Assembly: GCF_057098645.1 (NCBI RefSeq)
Contig: NZ_CM169472.1
Length of the DNA stretch: 64,000 nt
Strand: one strand, 5' to 3'
Below, piece by piece: positions 4,819 through 21,595 of the stretch. The notes under the pieces are model-generated. The model did no database searches. It was given only the letters and a program-made list of their open reading frames with translations, and was not told the DNA's origin. Both the position numbers and the translations under genes were made by a program. Position 1 is the first letter of the stretch. Every line of letters begins with the position of its first letter.

Positions 4819-5877
4819 ATGGTATTCAGAATAGCTAGCTCCCCTTATACCCATAACCAGCGCCAGACATCGCGCATTATGCTGTTGGTGTTGCTCGCAG
4901 CCGTGCCAGGAATCGCAGCGCAACTGTGGTTTTTTGGTTGGGGTACTCTCGTTCAGATCCTGTTGGCGTCGGTCAGTGCTCTGTTAGCCGAAGCTCTCGT
5001 ACTCAAACTACGCAAACAGTCGGTAGCCGCCACGTTGAAAGATAACTCAGCATTGCTGACAGGCTTATTGCTGGCGGTAAGTATTCCCCCCCTCGCGCCA
5101 TGGTGGATGGTCGTGCTGGGTACGGTGTTTGCGGTGATTATCGCTAAACAGTTATATGGCGGTCTGGGACAAAACCCGTTTAATCCGGCAATGATTGGTT
5201 ATGTGGTCTTACTGATCTCCTTCCCGGTGCAGATGACCAGCTGGTTACCGCCACATGAAATTGCGGTCAACCTCCCTGGTTTTATCGACGCCATACAGGT
5301 TATTTTCAGCGGGCATACCGCCAGTGGTGGTGATATGAACACACTACGCTTAGGTATTGATGGCATTAGTCAGGCGACACCGCTGGATACATTTAAAACC
5401 TCTGTCCGTGCCGGTCATTCGGTTGAACAGATTATGCAATATCCGATCTACAGCGGTATTCTGGCGGGCGCTGGTTGGCAATGGGTAAATCTCGCCTGGC
5501 TGGCTGGCGGCGTGTGGTTGCTATGGCAGAAAGCGATTCGCTGGCATATTCCCCTCAGCTTCTTAGTAACGCTGACGTTATGCGCAACGTTGGGCTGGTT
5601 GTTCTCACCAGAAACACTGGCAGCACCGCAAATTCATCTGCTGTCTGGAGCGACCATGCTCGGCGCATTCTTTATTTTGACTGACCCGGTTACCGCTTCT
5701 ACGACCAATCGTGGTCGTCTTATTTTCGGCGCGCTTGCGGGCTTATTAGTCTGGTTGATCCGCAGTTTCGGCGGCTATCCTGACGGCGTGGCTTTTGCCG
5801 TCCTGCTGGCGAACATCACGGTTCCTCTGATCGATTACTACACGCGTCCGCGCGTCTACGGCCATCGCAAAGGGTAA
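4819..5877 (+). CDS. rsxD: Rnf/Rsx complex subunit D
   Basis: 352-aa membrane protein in conserved operon position. Confidence 0.92.
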
Positions 5878-14168: not shown

Positions 14169-15278
14169 TCACGGGTTAGCGGGGAAAATAGCCCCGAGTA
14201 CCGTCTCCTGGCTTGCGCCAGTGACGGAAGGCAGATTTCCTGGTAATCCCGCCAGCGTACGCCAGGCAAGCCAGGCGAAAGCCAATGCTTCCATGTCATC
14301 GCCACTAATGCCAACGGCATCGGTGGTGGTGACTTCTGTGCCTGGCAGTAATGCCGCCAGACGCGCCATGAGTAGCGGATTACGACTTCCTCCACCACAT
14401 ACCAGCAATCGTTCACAGCCACCGCTCAACAAAACTTGTTCAGAAATGGTCACGGCGGTGAGTTCTGCCAGTGTGGCCTGCACATCACGGGGATCAACAC
14501 CCGGAAAATGGCGCAAATGGCGCTCCAGCCAGCCATAGTTAAAGTATTCGCGTCCGGTGCTTTTCGGTGCGGGTTGCGAGAAATACGGGTCGCTGAGCAT
14601 ATTTTGCAGTAGTGGGAGAATAACTTTACCCGCCCGTGCCCACTCGGCATCTTTATCGTAAGGTTTACCGGCCTGACGCCAGATCCAGGCATCCATCAGC
14701 ATGTTACCAGGACCGGTATCGTAGCCCCCAACCGGCTGCCCAGGAATGAGCAGTGACAGATTGGCGATGCCGCCAATATTGAGCACCATTCGTCGCTCGG
14801 TTGGGTGAGCCAGCAAGGCATGATGGAACGCAGGTACCAGCGGTGCGCCTTGTCCTCCCAAGGCAATATCGCGACGGCGAAAATCACCGACAACCGTAAT
14901 TCCGGTGCGTGCCACAATTTGATTATTATCGCCAATCTGTAAAGTGTGTGGTGCCACGCCCGTCGGTTCATGCCAGACGGTTTGACCGTGACAGCCGATC
15001 GCAACTATATCTCTCGCCTGCAGGTTTTGTTCCTTAAGCAAGGCATTGACCGCATCAGCAAAAAGTCGCCCGAGTTGAGTATCAAGCTGTCCAAACTGCG
15101 AAAGTGTAAGCTGCTGGCCCTGGCAAATATCCAGTACAGCCTGTTTCAGAGACACCGGGATCGGCCAGCTCAAACTTGCCAGCTGTGCGACCCGGTGTTC
15201 ATCAATTGTCGCCAACACAACATCAACACCATCAAGGCTGGTGCCTGACATAACGCCAATAAAGCGGCCCGATTTCAT
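14169..15278 (-). CDS. anmK: Anhydro-N-acetylmuramic acid kinase
   Basis: 369 aa, recognised AnmK; conserved position. Confidence 0.9.
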
Positions 15279-15551
15279 AGTTCATCCTTTTTCAATCTGA
15301 CGTTTGCGCACCACTCAAACATAAACTTTTCGTGAATACCATGCGGAATGACCGATTTTTACCGTTGGTAGTAAAACATTATCTTCAAATCAATAATCAT
15401 CATGAATGTTTTGTTTATAATTGGTTGATCCTACTTTCATTATGATTTGCTCATATTTGGTAGAACATGTAACCATGGATTCACATATGCCATATACTTT
15501 GACCATGAGGGATGCTTGCGTGGCGTTTCATGGTAAACAGGAGATTTTTCA

Positions 15552-16019
15552 ATGATTAAACGCGTATTGGTTGTTTCAATGGTAGGTCTGTCTCTTGTCG
15601 GTTGTGTTAATAACGACACCCTGTCAGGGGATGTTTATACCGCTTCTGAAGCGAAACAAGTACAGAATGTCAGCTATGGCACCATCGTTAACGTACGTCC
15701 GGTACAGATTCAGGGCGGTGATGATTCCAACGTGATCGGTGCAATTGGCGGTGCTGTTCTTGGTGGTTTCCTGGGAAATACTGTTGGTGGCGGAACCGGG
15801 CGTTCTCTGGCTACTGCAGCAGGCGCTGTTGCAGGTGGCGTAGCCGGTCAGGGCGTACAGAGTGCAATGAACAAAACGCAGGGTGTCGAGCTGGAAATTC
15901 GTAAAGACGATGGTAATACCATCATGGTGGTACAGAAACAAGGCAACACTCGTTTCTCTCCGGGCCAACGTGTCGTACTGGCCAGCAATGGCAGTCAGGT
16001 GACCGTTTCTCCGCGCTAA
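15552..16019 (+). CDS. slyB: Outer membrane lipoprotein SlyB
   Basis: 155 aa, lipobox LVGC, glycine-rich zipper region. Confidence 0.92.
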   Translation: MIKRVLVVSMVGLSLVGCVNNDTLSGDVYTASEAKQVQNVSYGTIVNVRPVQIQGGDDSNVIGAIGGAVLGGFLGNTVGGGTGRSLATAAGAVAGGVAGQGVQSAMNKTQGVELEIRKDDGNTIMVVQKQGNTRFSPGQRVVLASNGSQVTVSPR

Positions 16020-16026
16020 ATAGTTT

Positions 16027-16053
16027 GCGTGTGGTCAGGTTACTGACCACACG
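16027..16053. terminator. Hairpin between convergent slyB and slyA
   Basis: gcgtgtggtcag-gtta-ctgaccacacgc inverted repeat; the T tract is weak. Confidence 0.4.
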
Positions 16054-16064
16054 CCCCCTTCATT

Positions 16065-16505
16065 TCACCCTTTGGCCTGTAACTCAATGATATTATACTC
16101 AAGTTTTGCGATGAGCGTAATCAGTTGTTCCAGTTCCTCTGCGGAGATGCCATGTAAAATTTCCGCGCGGGTTTTGTTAATAACAGCTTCCATTTCGCTG
16201 ATCAGCGGCTCTGCCTTTTCCGTCAGTTTAATACGTTTAGCCCGACGATCGCTGGCACAAGTTTGACGCGAAATTAACCCTTTTTCTTCCAGTTGGTCCA
16301 GAGTACGGACCAGTGATGGCTGCTCGATGCCAATCGCTTTTGCCAGTTGAATTTGCGACTGGTCTGGAGGTAACTGATGGATATTGTGTAACGTAACCCA
16401 ATGGGTTTGTGTTAACTCCAGCGGTTTCAGGCGATGGTCTATCAGAGCACGCCATATGCGCACCAACCGTGCCAGATCAGAACCTAGTGGCGATTCCAAT
16501 TTCAT
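16065..16505 (-). CDS. slyA: MarR-family transcriptional regulator SlyA (annotated start may be the TTG two codons in)
   Basis: Recognised SlyA sequence ([23 protein letters not shown]...). Confidence 0.92.
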
Positions 16506-16699
16506 CTCCTTATAATTAGCTTGCTAAGATATTATGCGGCTTTTAGAATAGTGTGCAGCAATTGTATTGCTAAAACAAATGTATTGCTGCATTTGGTTAC
16601 CGTCAGACATATTTTTCAGAAATTGCGCGTAAATTTTTCGCACTTAAAGAATATTTATTAATCTAACGCAATATATTCGGTCGTAAAGGAATCTACTTT

Positions 16700-16936
16700 G
16701 TGAAGTTTATGCTCAATGCAACAGGATTGCCCTTACAAGATCTGGTGTTCGGTGCGTCCGTCTACTTTCCTCCGTTTTTCAAAGCCTTCGCGTTTGGATT
16801 CGTCATCTGGCTTGTCGTACACCGCCTGCTTCGTGGCTGGATCTACGCCGGTGACATCTGGCATCCCTTATTAATGGATTTATCGCTGTTTGCGATTTGC
16901 GTTTGCCTTGCTCTGGCAATACTGATTGCGTGGTAA
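16700..16936 (+). CDS. ydhI: Small inner membrane protein YdhI (DUF1656)
   Basis: 78-aa hydrophobic ORF, first gene of ydhIJK, divergent from slyA. Confidence 0.85.
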
Positions 16937-16938
16937 CT

Positions 16939-17796
16939 ATGTCAATTAAAACAATTAAGTATTTCTCAACAATCATTGTAGCGATAGTTGCGGTTCTTGC
17001 CGGATGGTGGTTGTGGAATTATTACATGCAATCTCCGTGGACACGCGACGGGAAAATACGCGCAGAACAGGTTTCTATCACCCCACAGGTGTCGGGACGT
17101 ATTGTTGAGCTGAATATAAAAGACAACCAGCTGGTTAACGCAGGGGATCTTCTGCTCACGATCGATAAAACGCCCTTTCAGATCGCCGAGCTGAATGCAC
17201 AGGCTCAGCTGGCGAAAGCGCAATCTGACCTCGCAAAAGCCAATAACGAAGCGAATCGTCGTCGTCATCTCTCACAAAATTTTATTTCTGCCGAAGAACT
17301 CGATACCGCTAACCTCAATGTTAAAGCGATGCAGGCCAGTGTTAATGCCGCACAGGCGACGCTGAAACAGACACAATGGCAACTGGCGCAAACGGAAATT
17401 CGCGCCCCGGTGAGTGGATGGGTGACTAACCTCACTACCCGCATCGGCGATTACGCTGACACCGGGAAACCGCTTTTTGCCCTTGTCGACAGCCACTCGT
17501 TTTACGTCATTGGTTATTTTGAAGAAACCAAGTTGCGCCATATCCGCGAAGGTGCACCAGCACAAATTACCCTCTATAGTGATAACAAAACGTTACAGGG
17601 TCACGTTTCCAGTATCGGTCGGGCGATTTATGATCAGAGCGTTGAAAGTGACTCAAGCCTTATTCCGGATGTGAAACCTAACGTCCCCTGGGTTCGTCTC
17701 GCCCAACGCGTTCCCGTCCGCTTTGCGCTGGATAAAGTTCCAGGCGATGTCACGCTGGTGTCGGGCACCACCTGTAGCATTGCCGTAGGTCAATAA
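16939..17796 (+). CDS. ydhJ: HlyD-family membrane fusion protein YdhJ
   Basis: Start taken at MSIKTIKYF (ATG at 16939); coiled-coil periplasmic adaptor features. Confidence 0.85.
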
Positions 17797-19808
17797 TGAA
17801 CGCATCGTCATGGTCCTTGCGCAATTTGCCCTGGTTCAGGGCCACGCTGGCGCAATGGCGTTATGCGTTACGCAATACCATTGCCATGTGTCTGGCGCTG
17901 ACGGTTGCCTATTATTTGAATCTGGATGAACCCTATTGGGCGATGACCTCGGCTGCAGTGGTTAGCTTTCCCACCGTTGGCGGTGTCATCAGCAAAAGCC
18001 TCGGACGCATCGCTGGCAGTTTACTGGGAGCCATTGCGGCACTGCTTCTTGCCGGGCATACGCTCAATGAGCCGTGGTTTTTTCTATTGAGCATGTTGGC
18101 GTGGCTTGGCTTTTGTACCTGGGCCTGTGCGCACTTCACGAATAACGTCGCGTATGCATTTCAACTGGCGGGCTACACGGCTGCCATCATCGCCTTTCCG
18201 ATGGTTAATATTACTGAGGCCAGCCAGCTGTGGGATATCGCTCAGGCGCGCGTTTGCGAGGTGATTGTCGGTATTTTGTGCGGCGGCATGATGATGATGA
18301 TCCTGCCTAGCAGTTCCGATGCTACAGCCCTTTTAACCGCATTGAAAAACATGCACGCCCGATTACTGGAACATGCCAGTTTACTCTGGCAGCCTGAAAC
18401 AACCGATGCCATTCGTGCAGCACATGAAGGGGTGATTGGGCAGATACTGACCATGAATTTGCTGCGTATCCAGGCTTTCTGGAGCCACTATCGTTTTCGC
18501 CAGCAAAACGCGCGCCTTAATGCGCTACTCCACCAGCAATTACGTATGACCAGTGTCATCTCCAGCCTGCGACGTATGTTGCTCAACTGGCCCTCACCGC
18601 CAGGTGCCACGCGAGAAATTCTCGAACAGTTGCTGACGGCGCTCGCCAGTTCGCAAACAGATGTTTACACCGTCGCACGTATTATCGCCCCGCTACGCCC
18701 GACCAACGTCGCCGACTATCGGCACGTCGCCTTCTGGCAGCGACTACGTTATTTTTGCCGCCTTTATCTGCAAAGTAGTCAGGAATTACATCGTCTGCAA
18801 AGCGGTGTAGATGAACATGCCAGACTCCCACGGACATCCGGCCTGGCTCGTCATACCGATAACGCCGAAGCTATGTGGAGCGGGCTGCGTACATTTTGTA
18901 CGTTGATGATGATTGGCGCATGGAGTATTGCTTCGCAATGGGATGCCGGTGCCAATGCATTAACGCTGGCAGCAATTAGCTGCGTACTCTACTCCGCCGT
19001 CGCAGCACCGTTTAAGTCGTTGTCACTGCTGATGCGCACGCTGGTGTTACTTTCGCTATTCAGCTTTGTGGTCAAATTTGGTCTGATGGTCCAGATTAGC
19101 GATCTGTGGCAATTTTTACTGTTTCTCTTTCCACTGCTGGCGACAATGCAGCTTCTTAAATTGCAGATGCCAAAATTTGCCGCACTGTGGGGGCAACTGA
19201 TTGTTTTTATGGGTTCGTTTATCGCTGTCACTAATCCCCCGGTGTATGATTTTGCTGATTTTCTTAACGATAATCTGGCGAAAATCGTTGGCGTCGCGTT
19301 GGCGTGGTTAGCGTTCGCCATTCTGCGTCCAGGATCGGATGCTCGTAAAAGCCGCCGCCATATTCGCGCGCTGCGTCGGGATTTTGTCGATCAACTAAGC
19401 CGCCATCCAACACTGAGTGAAAGCGAATTTGAATCGCTCACTTATCATCACGTCAGTCAGTTGAGTAACAGCCAGGATGCGCTGGCTCGCCGTTGGTTAT
19501 TACGCTGGGGTGTAGTGCTGCTGAACTGTTCTCATGTTGTCTGGCAATTACGCGACTGGGAATCGCGTTCCGATCCGTTATCGCGAGTACGGGATAACTG
19601 TATTTCACTGTTGCGGGGAGTGATGAGTGAGCGTGGCGTTCAGCAAAAATCACTGGCGGCCACACTTGAAGAATTACAGCGGATTTGCGACAGCCTTGCC
19701 CGTCATCATCAACCTGCCGCCCGTGAGCTGGCGGCAATTGTCTGGCGGCTGTACTGCTCGCTTTCGCAACTTGAGCAAGCACCACCGCAAGGTACGCTGG
19801 CCTCTTAA
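17796..19808 (+). CDS. ydhK: Putative efflux transporter YdhK (fusaric-acid-resistance / aromatic acid exporter family)
   Basis: 670-aa membrane protein; start overlaps the ydhJ stop. Confidence 0.85.
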
Positions 19809-20330
19809 TTACTTAATTACACCACAGGCATAGCGTTCACCGCCACCGCCCAGCGGTTTAGGTTGATCGGACATATTATCGCCGCCAACGTGGACCATCA
19901 GCGCTTTGTCTTTGATTTCATCCAGTGATTTCAGACGAGGCGCGATGACGGCATCGGTAGCTTTGCCGTCATTATTGACGACCAGTGCAGGCAGATCGCC
20001 TAAATGCCCGGCACCTTCTGGCCCTTCATGTTTACCGGTATTTTGTGGATCAAGATGCCCGCCTGCGGATTCCGCGGCGCTGGCTTTGCCATCTTTGGTG
20101 GCTGGCTGGCAGCTTCCTTTGGCATGAATATGGAAGCCATGTTCACCGGGGGGTAATGCTTTCAGATCGGGCGAAAACTCCAGACCTTTATCGGTTTCAG
20201 TAATGGTGACGCTACCAATTGACTGCCCAACCCCTTGCGACGTGACGAGGTTCATCTCGACTTTTTCACTGGCAGCTTGTGCGCCGGTCGCAACAACCAG
20301 CGCCAGAATAGCCAGACTAAAACGTTTCAT
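19809..20330 (-). CDS. sodC: Periplasmic Cu,Zn superoxide dismutase
   Basis: Start taken at MKRFSLAIL (signal peptide); Cu/Zn-binding His-rich core. Confidence 0.92.
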   Translation of the reverse strand: MKRFSLAILALVVATGAQAASEKVEMNLVTSQGVGQSIGSVTITETDKGLEFSPDLKALPPGEHGFHIHAKGSCQPATKDGKASAAESAGGHLDPQNTGKHEGPEGAGHLGDLPALVVNNDGKATDAVIAPRLKSLDEIKDKALMVHVGGDNMSDQPKPLGGGGERYACGVIK

Positions 20331-20410
20331 AGGACCTCCGTTCATTGTGCATTCCTGAATAAGTGTAAACCAGTGACACATTTTTGAACGGCGGCTATTC
20401 CTAAAAGTGC

Positions 20411-21307
20411 TTACGGTACGTCGTAACCCAGTGCCGCTTTACGGATACGAAACCATTGTTGACGGGTCATTTTCAGTGTTTCTGCTTCGACAGCTGCCCG
20501 TACGCGCTCAATTTTACCTGAGCCGATAATTGGCAGCGGCTGCGATGGTAAACGTAATACCCAGGCGTAAACCACCTGTTCAATCGAGCCCGCGTTTAAC
20601 TCCTCTGCCACCACAGCCAGTTCATCACGCAGCGGCTGGAAATAATCATCATTAAACAGACGACCACCACCAAGGCAGGACCACGCCATCGGACGAACAC
20701 GCAGTTGTTGCAGTTGGTCGAGCGTGCCATCCAGCAGTAACGGCTGATGTACCGGGGATATTTCCACCTGATTAGTGGCAAGGGTAAACGGCAGACGTGA
20801 TTGCAACAGGGCAAATTGCGCAGGCGTAAAGTTCGATACGCCAAAATGACGCACTTTGCCGCTCTGATGCAGATGTTTGAACGCGTCCGCCACTTCATCG
20901 GCATCCATTAACGGGTCCGGGCGGTGGATTAACAGCAGATCCAGATGATCGGTCGCAAGATTAATTAGCGACTGTTCGGCGCTCTTAATGATGTGATCGC
21001 GGTCAGTGATGTAATGACCAATGACGTTTTCTTCACGCGCGGTCGTCGCGATACCGCATTTACTGACGATTTCCATCCGCTCACGCAGGTGAGGTGCCAG
21101 TTTCAGCGCCTCGCCAAACGCCGCTTCGCACTGATAGCCACCATAAATATCAGCATGGTCCACGGTGGTCACGCCGAGATCCAGATGCTCTTCAATAAAA
21201 CTGACCAGCTGGCGGGCGGACATGTTCCAGTCCATCAATCGCCAGTAGCCCATCACAAAACGGGAAAACTCCGGGCCTTGCGGCGCAATAGTAATACGCT
21301 GAACCAT
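20411..21307 (-). CDS. ydhF: Aldo-keto reductase family oxidoreductase YdhF
   Basis: 298 aa, recognised AKR-family sequence; conserved position. Confidence 0.88.
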   Translation of the reverse strand: MVQRITIAPQGPEFSRFVMGYWRLMDWNMSARQLVSFIEEHLDLGVTTVDHADIYGGYQCEAAFGEALKLAPHLRERMEIVSKCGIATTAREENVIGHYITDRDHIIKSAEQSLINLATDHLDLLLIHRPDPLMDADEVADAFKHLHQSGKVRHFGVSNFTPAQFALLQSRLPFTLATNQVEISPVHQPLLLDGTLDQLQQLRVRPMAWSCLGGGRLFNDDYFQPLRDELAVVAEELNAGSIEQVVYAWVLRLPSQPLPIIGSGKIERVRAAVEAETLKMTRQQWFRIRKAALGYDVP

Positions 21308-21355
21308 AATCGCTTCCTCTTATCAGATATGAGAGGAGTATACGCAAGATTAGGC

Positions 21356-21595
21356 TCAAAAGAGTGATGGTTGCTCCGGTTCGTCTGATGACGCTGGCTT
21401 ATTTGCACGTAATTTGCGCATTAATCGTTGCCGACAAAGGCGCAGCACCTCTTGTTTTTCGCCATCGCTCATTTTATTCCAGTTAAAACGCTCATCCCGA
21501 CTACGAAAACAGCCGCGACAAAACCCGCGTTCGTCAGACTGGCAAATTCCCCGGCACGGGCTCTGGACGGGAAAGAACTCTAATTGCTCCGCCAC
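21356..21595 (-). CDS. ydhL: DUF1289 Cys-rich small protein YdhL (79 aa, GTG start)
   Basis: The track ORF is an upstream extension; GTG at 21593-21595 gives the 79-aa form with CRGICQSDERGFCRGC. Confidence 0.75.
   Translation of the reverse strand: MAEQLEFFPVQSPCRGICQSDERGFCRGCFRSRDERFNWNKMSDGEKQEVLRLCRQRLMRKLRANKPASSDEPEQPSLF

Follow-up and report, generated by a model that had tools for sequence, protein, structure and literature searches.

The DNA analysed here, a 64,000-nucleotide stretch of contig NZ_CM169472.1 in the RefSeq assembly GCF_057098645.1 (hereafter, the window, meaning the whole stretch), is part of an Escherichia coli O145:H28 chromosome, and it carries slyA, the gene for a MarR-type regulator, and, divergent from it, ydhIJK, the genes for a putative efflux system. 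We consider it likely that this locus is a conserved enterobacterial slyA-ydhIJK unit, in which a ligand-responsive regulator of the MarR type stands beside an efflux operon that was ancestrally under its control. The locus itself is nothing new, as the binding of SlyA, the repression (in sister genera) and the fusaric-acid phenotype are all in print; what may be mildly new is a fold-level argument, drawn from a structure model of YdhK, on how transporters of the FUSC family could work.

The identity of the regulator, proposed as MarR-type SlyA in the initial annotation (made from the sequence alone), was borne out by its MarR domain (Pfam PF01047, E = 8.9e-17), by the NCBIfam equivalog model NF002926 (276.8 bits against a cut-off of 120) and by RefSeq; the solved SlyA structures 3q5f and 3deu matched at E ~1e-78. 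SlyA has been reported to bind a 200-bp slyA-ydhI fragment of E. coli K-12 in an electrophoretic mobility shift assay (PMC5797941). The primers used in that assay (TC65 and TC66) delimit exactly positions 16500-16699 of the window, and the assayed fragment is 100% identical to the window DNA. With the Salmonella protein, in vitro transcription showed that SlyA represses ydhI ~19-fold and slyA 5.3-fold, and that 2 mM salicylate lowers the repression to 3.2-fold (ydhI) and 2.8-fold (slyA) (PMC6401476). In a paper of 2025, ydhIJK was found among the SlyA-repressed genes by RNA-seq, and 4-hydroxybenzoate (4-HB) and 2,3-dihydroxybenzoate (2,3-DHB) were described as endogenous ligands, both of which inhibit SlyA, the inhibition having been measured elsewhere than on ydhI itself (PMC12506092). 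In Klebsiella pneumoniae, the loss or disruption of kvrA (the slyA orthologue) raised YdhJ 45- to >100-fold (bioRxiv 845925). The release of SlyA from DNA by aromatic carboxylates is published for Salmonella SlyA and is a prediction for the H135Y allele of the window. The substituted residue (codon at 16095-16097) falls in the C-terminal helix. With binding, repression and a fusaric-acid phenotype on record (PMC5797941, PMC6401476), the description of the module as poorly characterised is outdated in these respects; it still fits the physiological substrate (PMC12506092).

The SlyA consensus TTAGCAAGCTAA, as quoted in PMC5797941, occurs without mismatch only once in the window when both strands are considered, at 16516-16527. 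Sites with three mismatches numbered 40 against 52 expected, that is, at or below chance, and therefore the perfect site alone is meaningful. The same 12-mer lies at the same position in a Salmonella-like locus (L005) and in a further relative (L007), in which YdhK is 62% identical. In the three-way alignment of the window, L005 and L007, the block AATTAGCTTGCTAA and the ~30 nt that follow it are invariant; the ydhI-proximal half of the spacer is diverged, which agrees with the description in PMC6401476. This unique perfect operator, invariant across three genera, is a mildly new observation, and we infer from the DNA sequence that the site, in the leader of slyA, is the functional operator. 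The -35 hexamer of a sigma-70-like promoter match directed towards ydhI (Table 1) sits inside the operator, and the hexamers of this match are kept in L005 and nearly kept in L007. As for the promoter counts, the region gave four sigma-70 matches against 4.1 in shuffled sequences (intrinsic terminators: five against 6.1), so the promoter assignments are to be taken as leads only. Between the operator and ydhI lies an inverted repeat that flanks two direct repeats (Table 1), and this repeat region holds a SlyA-like site with three mismatches at 16562-16573. No RNA family was found in the Rfam scan of positions 15000-21500.

The length of this control region depends on the start of slyA. RefSeq places the start at TTG 16499, which accords with the "unusual UUG start codon" noted for the gene (PMC5797941), and the slyA-ydhI spacer is therefore 200 bp long, not the 194 bp (16506..16699) of the initial annotation; an in-frame ATG is found at 16505, and the open reading frame (ORF) from the first ATG is 16065..16505 on the minus strand. 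The spacer was rightly called AT-rich, its GC content being 31.5% against ~50% in both flanks, and it is base-for-base the same as that of K-12 MG1655.

With regard to distribution, the 3.9-kb slyA-ydhIJK stretch of the window matches several E. coli O145:H28 chromosomes at 100% identity and was found in 5425 of the 5426 complete E. coli genomes, with at least 80% of the stretch present in 5409; slyA-ydhIJK is core E. coli chromosome and an annotated operon. One of the 5430 matching places was on a plasmid record, and one complete genome gave no match. The proteins differ from those of K-12 MG1655 at no more than three positions each (Table 1). Outside E. coli, the order of the genes for the MarR regulator, the DUF1656 protein, the adaptor and the FUSC protein is kept in L005, in L007 and in a Klebsiella oxytoca-like genome (GCA_045584145.1; L006). 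The linkage of slyA to ydhJ and ydhK was given as 95-100% in the enteric cluster and ~30% elsewhere (PMC6401476). In L006, a gene for a DDE transposase (L006 1760-2683) lies between the slyA orthologue and ydhI; it parts the operator-proximal region from the pump operon and is a natural uncoupling of regulator and target.

Turning to the transporter itself, YdhK matches the FUSC family over nearly the full profile (Pfam PF04632, positions 1-658 of 660; 464.7 bits against a cut-off of 30.9, E = 8e-139), so that its assignment to the aromatic-acid/fusaric-acid family of inner-membrane proteins stands; its Transporter Classification number is 2.A.85.1.6 (PMC10971958). For the structural comparison, a family profile of 77 sequences was drawn from 50%-cluster representatives (the first homologue search had returned only close orthologues, of at least 76% identity, which were unfit for a profile), and the AlphaFold2 model was built from this 77-sequence alignment. 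The model is all-helical, with a predicted local distance difference test score (pLDDT) of 93.5 and a predicted template modelling score (pTM) of 0.91, and consists of two tandem units, in each of which six membrane helices form a domain that precedes a helical cytosolic one. The two halves are related also in sequence (hhalign, N-half against C-half: probability 96.1%, E = 3e-9), and therefore one YdhK chain corresponds to a homodimer of ALMT. In the search of the PDB with the single YdhK sequence, the best match was not significant (ALMT12, E = 0.36). With the 77-sequence profile, only plant ALMT anion channels were matched (ALMT9, E = 9.7e-11; ALMT1, 2e-7; ALMT12/QUAC1, 2e-6), and the ten best PDB matches of the model with Foldseek were all ALMT1, ALMT9 or ALMT12 at a probability of 1.00, the sequence identity between YdhK and ALMT being 14-16%. 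To our knowledge, no structure has been solved for any FUSC, AaeB or MdtO protein. Structures of the major facilitator superfamily (MFS) and of ATP-binding cassette (ABC) transporters matched the YdhK model with a probability of at most 0.3 (template modelling score at most 0.2 for MFS), and no chain of a resistance-nodulation-division (RND) transporter was among the structure matches listed. The assignment of YdhK to the MFS, RND or ABC class was rejected, since there was no MFS match in Pfam and the fold matched ALMT; a review table places AaeAB and MdtNOP under MFS (PMC8277102), a listing that is not supported by the fold evidence.

Two arginines of YdhK, R71 and R152, align with R80 and R165 of ALMT1 (R143 and R226 of ALMT9), and the corresponding arginines of the third and sixth transmembrane helices (TM3 and TM6) of ALMT are described as coordinating malate in the pore (bioRxiv 10.64898/2026.03.10.710584). 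R71 is kept in 76/77 family members and R152 in 77/77, and the equivalent positions of the C-half are not arginine. A preprint of 2026 argues that a half-size FUSC protein of mycobacteria is an anion channel of the ALMT kind through which alpha-ketoglutarate is exported, its grounds being structural homology, mutational scanning and metabolomics (bioRxiv 10.64898/2026.03.10.710584). No statement was found in the literature that ties ALMT to the full-length, adaptor-linked FUSC proteins of enterobacteria.

As for the two smaller proteins, YdhI was confirmed as a small membrane protein by its match to DUF1656 (Pfam PF07869, 53.9 bits against a cut-off of 26.5, E = 1.8e-14) and by two hydrophobic segments in the hydropathy plot (~21-44 and ~53-78). 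YdhJ is a periplasmic adaptor (membrane-fusion protein) of the AaeA/EmrA type, and its earlier designation as an HlyD-type adaptor was upheld by the Pfam domains HlyD_D23, HlyD_3 and Biotin_lipoyl_2, all above the cut-off (E ~1e-17 for the HlyD/CusB adaptor domains); its orthologues in related loci match HH_AAEA_pHBA and Beta-barrel_AAEA. The hydrophobic N-terminal segment of YdhJ (1-30) is a membrane anchor, the protein is 36% identical to MdtN, and its solved relatives in the PDB are TriAB, EmrA, AcrA and MacA. The gene for an outer-membrane factor (OMF) was found neither in the first 50 kb of the window, where the operon is neighboured by slyA/slyB and by sodC/ydhF, nor beside the five related loci examined (one relative, P0126, of 35% identity, has no contig on record). 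The module is thus tripartite-like, as it had been termed, only in the sense of having three genes, because the third encodes a DUF1656 accessory protein and no OMF gene is linked; in its gene content it departs from canonical tripartite systems.

The phenotype known for these genes comes from Salmonella: at 30 ug/ml fusaric acid, growth is delayed in ydhIJK and slyA ydhIJK mutants, while it is improved in slyA mutants (PMC6401476). On the strength of this growth delay, YdhIJK is a putative exporter of aromatic carboxylates. The earlier statement that the substrate is not established remains true of the physiological substrate (PMC12506092).

From these data, the following mechanism may be proposed. 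Since the operator, within the slyA leader, shares bases with the -35 element facing ydhI, a single SlyA dimer bound at 16516-16527 could repress transcription in both directions. When aromatic carboxylates build up, SlyA would leave the DNA, and ydhI, ydhJ and ydhK would then be expressed from one mRNA, their levels possibly linked through the 2-nt gap and the 1-nt overlap at the gene junctions. YdhK would act as a pseudo-dimer, with two ALMT/FUSC anion-channel units in one chain, through which the carboxylate anion leaves the cytoplasm; the inside-negative membrane potential would be the simplest driving force, and R71 and R152 of the N-half would guide the anion. YdhJ, anchored in the inner membrane, would serve as the periplasmic adaptor, and YdhI, in the manner of AaeX or FusD, as a small accessory subunit. 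The outer-membrane exit would be encoded elsewhere, TolC being the obvious candidate.

We tentatively extend this proposal to the family, as a possibility rather than an expectation: YdhK, together with AaeB, MdtO and FusC, may be a single-chain asymmetric anion channel of the ALMT type, not a proton-coupled pump, in which only the N-half keeps the pore arginines and from which monovalent anions of aromatic carboxylates pass, down the membrane potential, into the periplasmic adaptor. The natural cargo might then be 4-hydroxybenzoate and 2,3-dihydroxybenzoate, and, as these are the same aromatic carboxylates that switch SlyA off, slyA-ydhIJK would form a self-contained relief valve for precursors of ubiquinone and siderophores. 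If true, this would be a channel-powered efflux assembly, in a class apart from the RND, ABC and MFS tripartite pumps. The ALMT-type fold and the conserved arginines bear on energisation across the whole FUSC/AaeB/MdtO family.

Among known systems, AaeXAB of E. coli is the closest studied paralogue. It has the same three genes in the same order (for a DUF1656 protein, an AaeA-type adaptor and a full-length FUSC transporter), a divergent regulator gene adjoins it as slyA adjoins ydhIJK, and in neither system is an OMF gene linked, the partner of AaeAB being listed as 'AaeAB-?' (PMC8277102). The identities are 33% for YdhI and AaeX, 42% for YdhJ and AaeA, and 24% for YdhK and AaeB. The regulator is the LysR-type activator AaeR in that system and the MarR-type repressor SlyA in the case of ydhIJK; the substrates of AaeAB are p-hydroxybenzoate (pHBA), 6-hydroxy-2-naphthoate and 2-hydroxycinnamate, whereas ydhIJK is known by the fusaric-acid phenotype, in Salmonella only. 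YdhJ and YdhK were rejected as AaeAB itself, since both fall well short of the equivalog cut-offs (YdhJ 242 against 400 for AaeA, YdhK 119.5 against 870 for AaeB); ydhIJK is therefore a paralogue of AaeAB and no additional copy of it. The orthologous loci are slyA-ydhIJK of Salmonella Typhimurium and kvrA-ydhIJK of Klebsiella, which share the gene order, the junction geometry and the position of the perfect operator, with YdhK ~85% identical; they differ in that the distal half of the spacer is diverged and in that repression has been demonstrated there, while the data for E. coli K-12 are binding and a 2.2-fold rise on over-expression of SlyA.

Also related are Bucl8-FusCDE of Burkholderia, FuaABC of Stenotrophomonas and MdtNOP of E. 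coli, which likewise combine a FUSC inner-membrane protein with a periplasmic adaptor, FusCDE carrying the small DUF1656 protein as well. FusC-type pumps with an OMF confer resistance to fusaric acid (PMC7682875). These three systems encode an OMF of their own, which ydhIJK does not, and the gene order and the regulators differ. ALMT1, ALMT9, ALMT12 (QUAC1) and the mycobacterial Rv2571c share with YdhK the unit of six membrane helices and a helical cytosolic domain, and the alignment of the pore arginines holds for the ALMTs; channel behaviour of YdhK is a prediction from the fold. ALMT and Rv2571c are homodimers of one unit, whereas YdhK has two diverged units in one chain with the arginines in the N-half only, and the ALMTs have neither a periplasmic adaptor nor a small partner.

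An alternative to the channel mechanism, possible though we hold it doubtful, is that YdhIJK is a classical proton-coupled secondary pump, in which YdhK works by alternating access and which is assembled with TolC, in the manner of EmrAB-TolC, into a tripartite complex that spans the envelope. The relation of YdhJ to EmrA, AcrA and MacA, which marks it as a genuine periplasmic adaptor, the presence of an OMF gene in related FUSC operons (mdtNOP in K-12 and bucl8-fusCDE in Burkholderia, PMC7682875) and the hypersensitivity of tolC mutants to aromatic acids such as p-coumarate (PMC9301823) would all suit such a pump. However, the fold of YdhK matches only ALMT channels, with the low MFS and ABC probabilities and the list of matches free of RND chains given above, an OMF gene is linked in none of the five relatives examined, and the review entry for AaeAB, the nearest paralogue studied, has a question mark in place of an OMF (PMC8277102). 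We know of no proton-relay motif or coupling data for this protein.

Several points weigh against our interpretation of the locus as a SlyA-controlled exporter of aromatic carboxylates. In E. coli K-12, SlyA may either repress or activate the operon: deletion of slyA altered no transcript in chemostats, because SlyA was undetectable in those cultures, and over-production of SlyA raised ydhIJK 2.2-fold rather than lowering it (PMC5797941). Salmonella and Klebsiella are the sources of all the data on repression and phenotype, what fusaric acid revealed was delayed growth rather than measured efflux, and the physiological function of YdhIJK was said to be one that 'remains to be determined' (PMC12506092). 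The consensus matches taken as promoters are no more frequent than chance would give, and the channel-type, potential-driven transport by YdhK is inferred solely from its fold and from two residues that are conserved. We are aware of no transport assay for YdhK, AaeB or MdtO.

The absence of a transcript change in the K-12 slyA mutant, the scarcity of SlyA and the rise of ydhIJK on SlyA over-production would also fit an operon that is essentially cryptic in E. coli, in which H-NS silences the AT-rich spacer, SlyA is too scarce to act and is, if anything, an anti-silencer (activator), and ydhIJK is a conserved leftover with little export role. The slyA-ydhI region is tagged as H-NS-associated in one data set (PMC5797941), its GC content is low, as given above, and repeated losses of ydhIJK are recorded in other Enterobacterales (PMC6401476), all of which would agree with this reading. 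Nevertheless, we regard this explanation as unlikely: an operon that is intact in 5409-5425 of the 5426 complete E. coli genomes, with proteins 98.9-100% identical to their K-12 counterparts, speaks for purifying selection; neither the operator nor the promoter-like element beside it varies between genera; and the orthologous regulators clearly repress ydhIJK in Salmonella and Klebsiella.

Still less probable is a module that responds mainly to envelope stress through a sigma-E promoter and exports an envelope- or lipid-derived compound, for, although a sigma-E-like element lies upstream of ydhI (Table 1), ydhJ and ydhK have been counted in the sigma-E regulon, and ydhK is induced in the killing that follows restriction-modification loss and is toxic on over-expression, lowering viability (PMC2685091), the motif is loose (nine matches in 128 kb, both strands of the window being counted) and poorly conserved in the Salmonella-like L005, ydhIJK is not mentioned in the text (supplements apart) of the sigma-E regulon paper PMC1312014, and the direct functional data all point to aromatic carboxylates. 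A further loose sigma-E-like match (GCACTT-N17-TCAAA) was seen upstream of sodC at 20383-20410 on the minus strand; it is probably a chance match, because the pattern occurs nine times in 128 kb.

The coordinates of the features are collected in Table 1. The positions of ydhI, ydhJ, ydhK and the end of slyA, and the divergent arrangement, agreed with the ORF table and the raw sequence.

Table 1. Features of the slyA-ydhIJK locus in the window, with protein differences from E. coli K-12 MG1655.
Feature	Position	Strand	Description	Differences from K-12 MG1655
slyA	16065..16499	-	144 aa from TTG 16499; MarR-family; ORF table and RefSeq	H135Y (99.3% identical)
slyA-ydhI intergenic control region	16500..16699	.	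200 bp	
Perfect SlyA consensus operator (predicted site) TTAGCAAGCTAA	16516..16527	-	11-22 nt upstream of slyA ATG 16505	
Sigma-70-like promoter match TTGCTA-17-TAGAAT	16521..16549	+ (towards ydhI)	consensus scan, 9/12 positions	
Inverted repeat TGCAGCAAT/ATTGCTGCA	16554..16591	.	flanks two direct repeats CAAxTGTATTGCT	
Sigma-E-like promoter match GCACTT-N16-TCTAA	16640..16666	+	34 nt upstream of ydhI GTG; regex scan	
ydhI	16700..16936	+	GTG start, 78 aa; stop TAA 16934-16936	none (identical)
ydhJ	16939..17796	+	ATG start, 285 aa; stop TAA 17794-17796	V16I, D136N, A145T
ydhK	17796..19808	+	ATG 17796-17798, 670 aa	S101L, D340E, T342A

The genes of the operon are closely packed: ydhI and ydhJ are separated by a 2-nt spacer (TAA 16934-16936, ATG 16939), and ydhJ and ydhK overlap by 1 nt in TAATG, the last A of the ydhJ stop codon TAA being the first base of the ydhK ATG. 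The same 2-nt gap and 1-nt overlap are found in the Salmonella-like contig, and a 4-nt gap and a 4-nt overlap in a more distant relative. Of the claim that ydhIJK is translationally coupled, the junction geometry was confirmed; the coupling itself is suggested by that geometry only. Two singleton proteins, P0002 (845 aa) and P0048 (900 aa), one of which is labelled Salmonella enterica, carry the adaptor and FUSC domains in one chain, and such fusions are most simply explained by a one-base change or a sequencing error at the TAATG junction that joins the two frames.

The locus is neighboured by anmK-slyB on one side and by sodC-ydhF-ydhL-nemRA on the other, an arrangement as in K-12. In the 45-bp spacer between the convergent genes slyB and slyA, a perfect 12-bp stem with a 4-nt loop was found at 16027-16054 (free energy ~-24 kcal/mol on either strand, z-scores of -6.4 and -5.6); this hairpin is probably a bidirectional terminator, yet it has no clear U-run on either side and was not called by the terminator scan. 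At the other end of the locus, the stop codons of ydhK and the convergent sodC abut (TAA/TTA, 19806-19811) with zero spacer and no convincing terminator hairpin, and in related loci the two coding regions overlap, by 25 bp in the Salmonella-like locus (L005 6016-6040) and by 8 bp in the Klebsiella-like locus (L006 6018-6025). The ydhK-sodC pair figures among the convergent 'excludon' pairs of E. coli defined from RNA-seq (PMC12288877), and the two transcripts therefore probably overlap and may interfere with each other.

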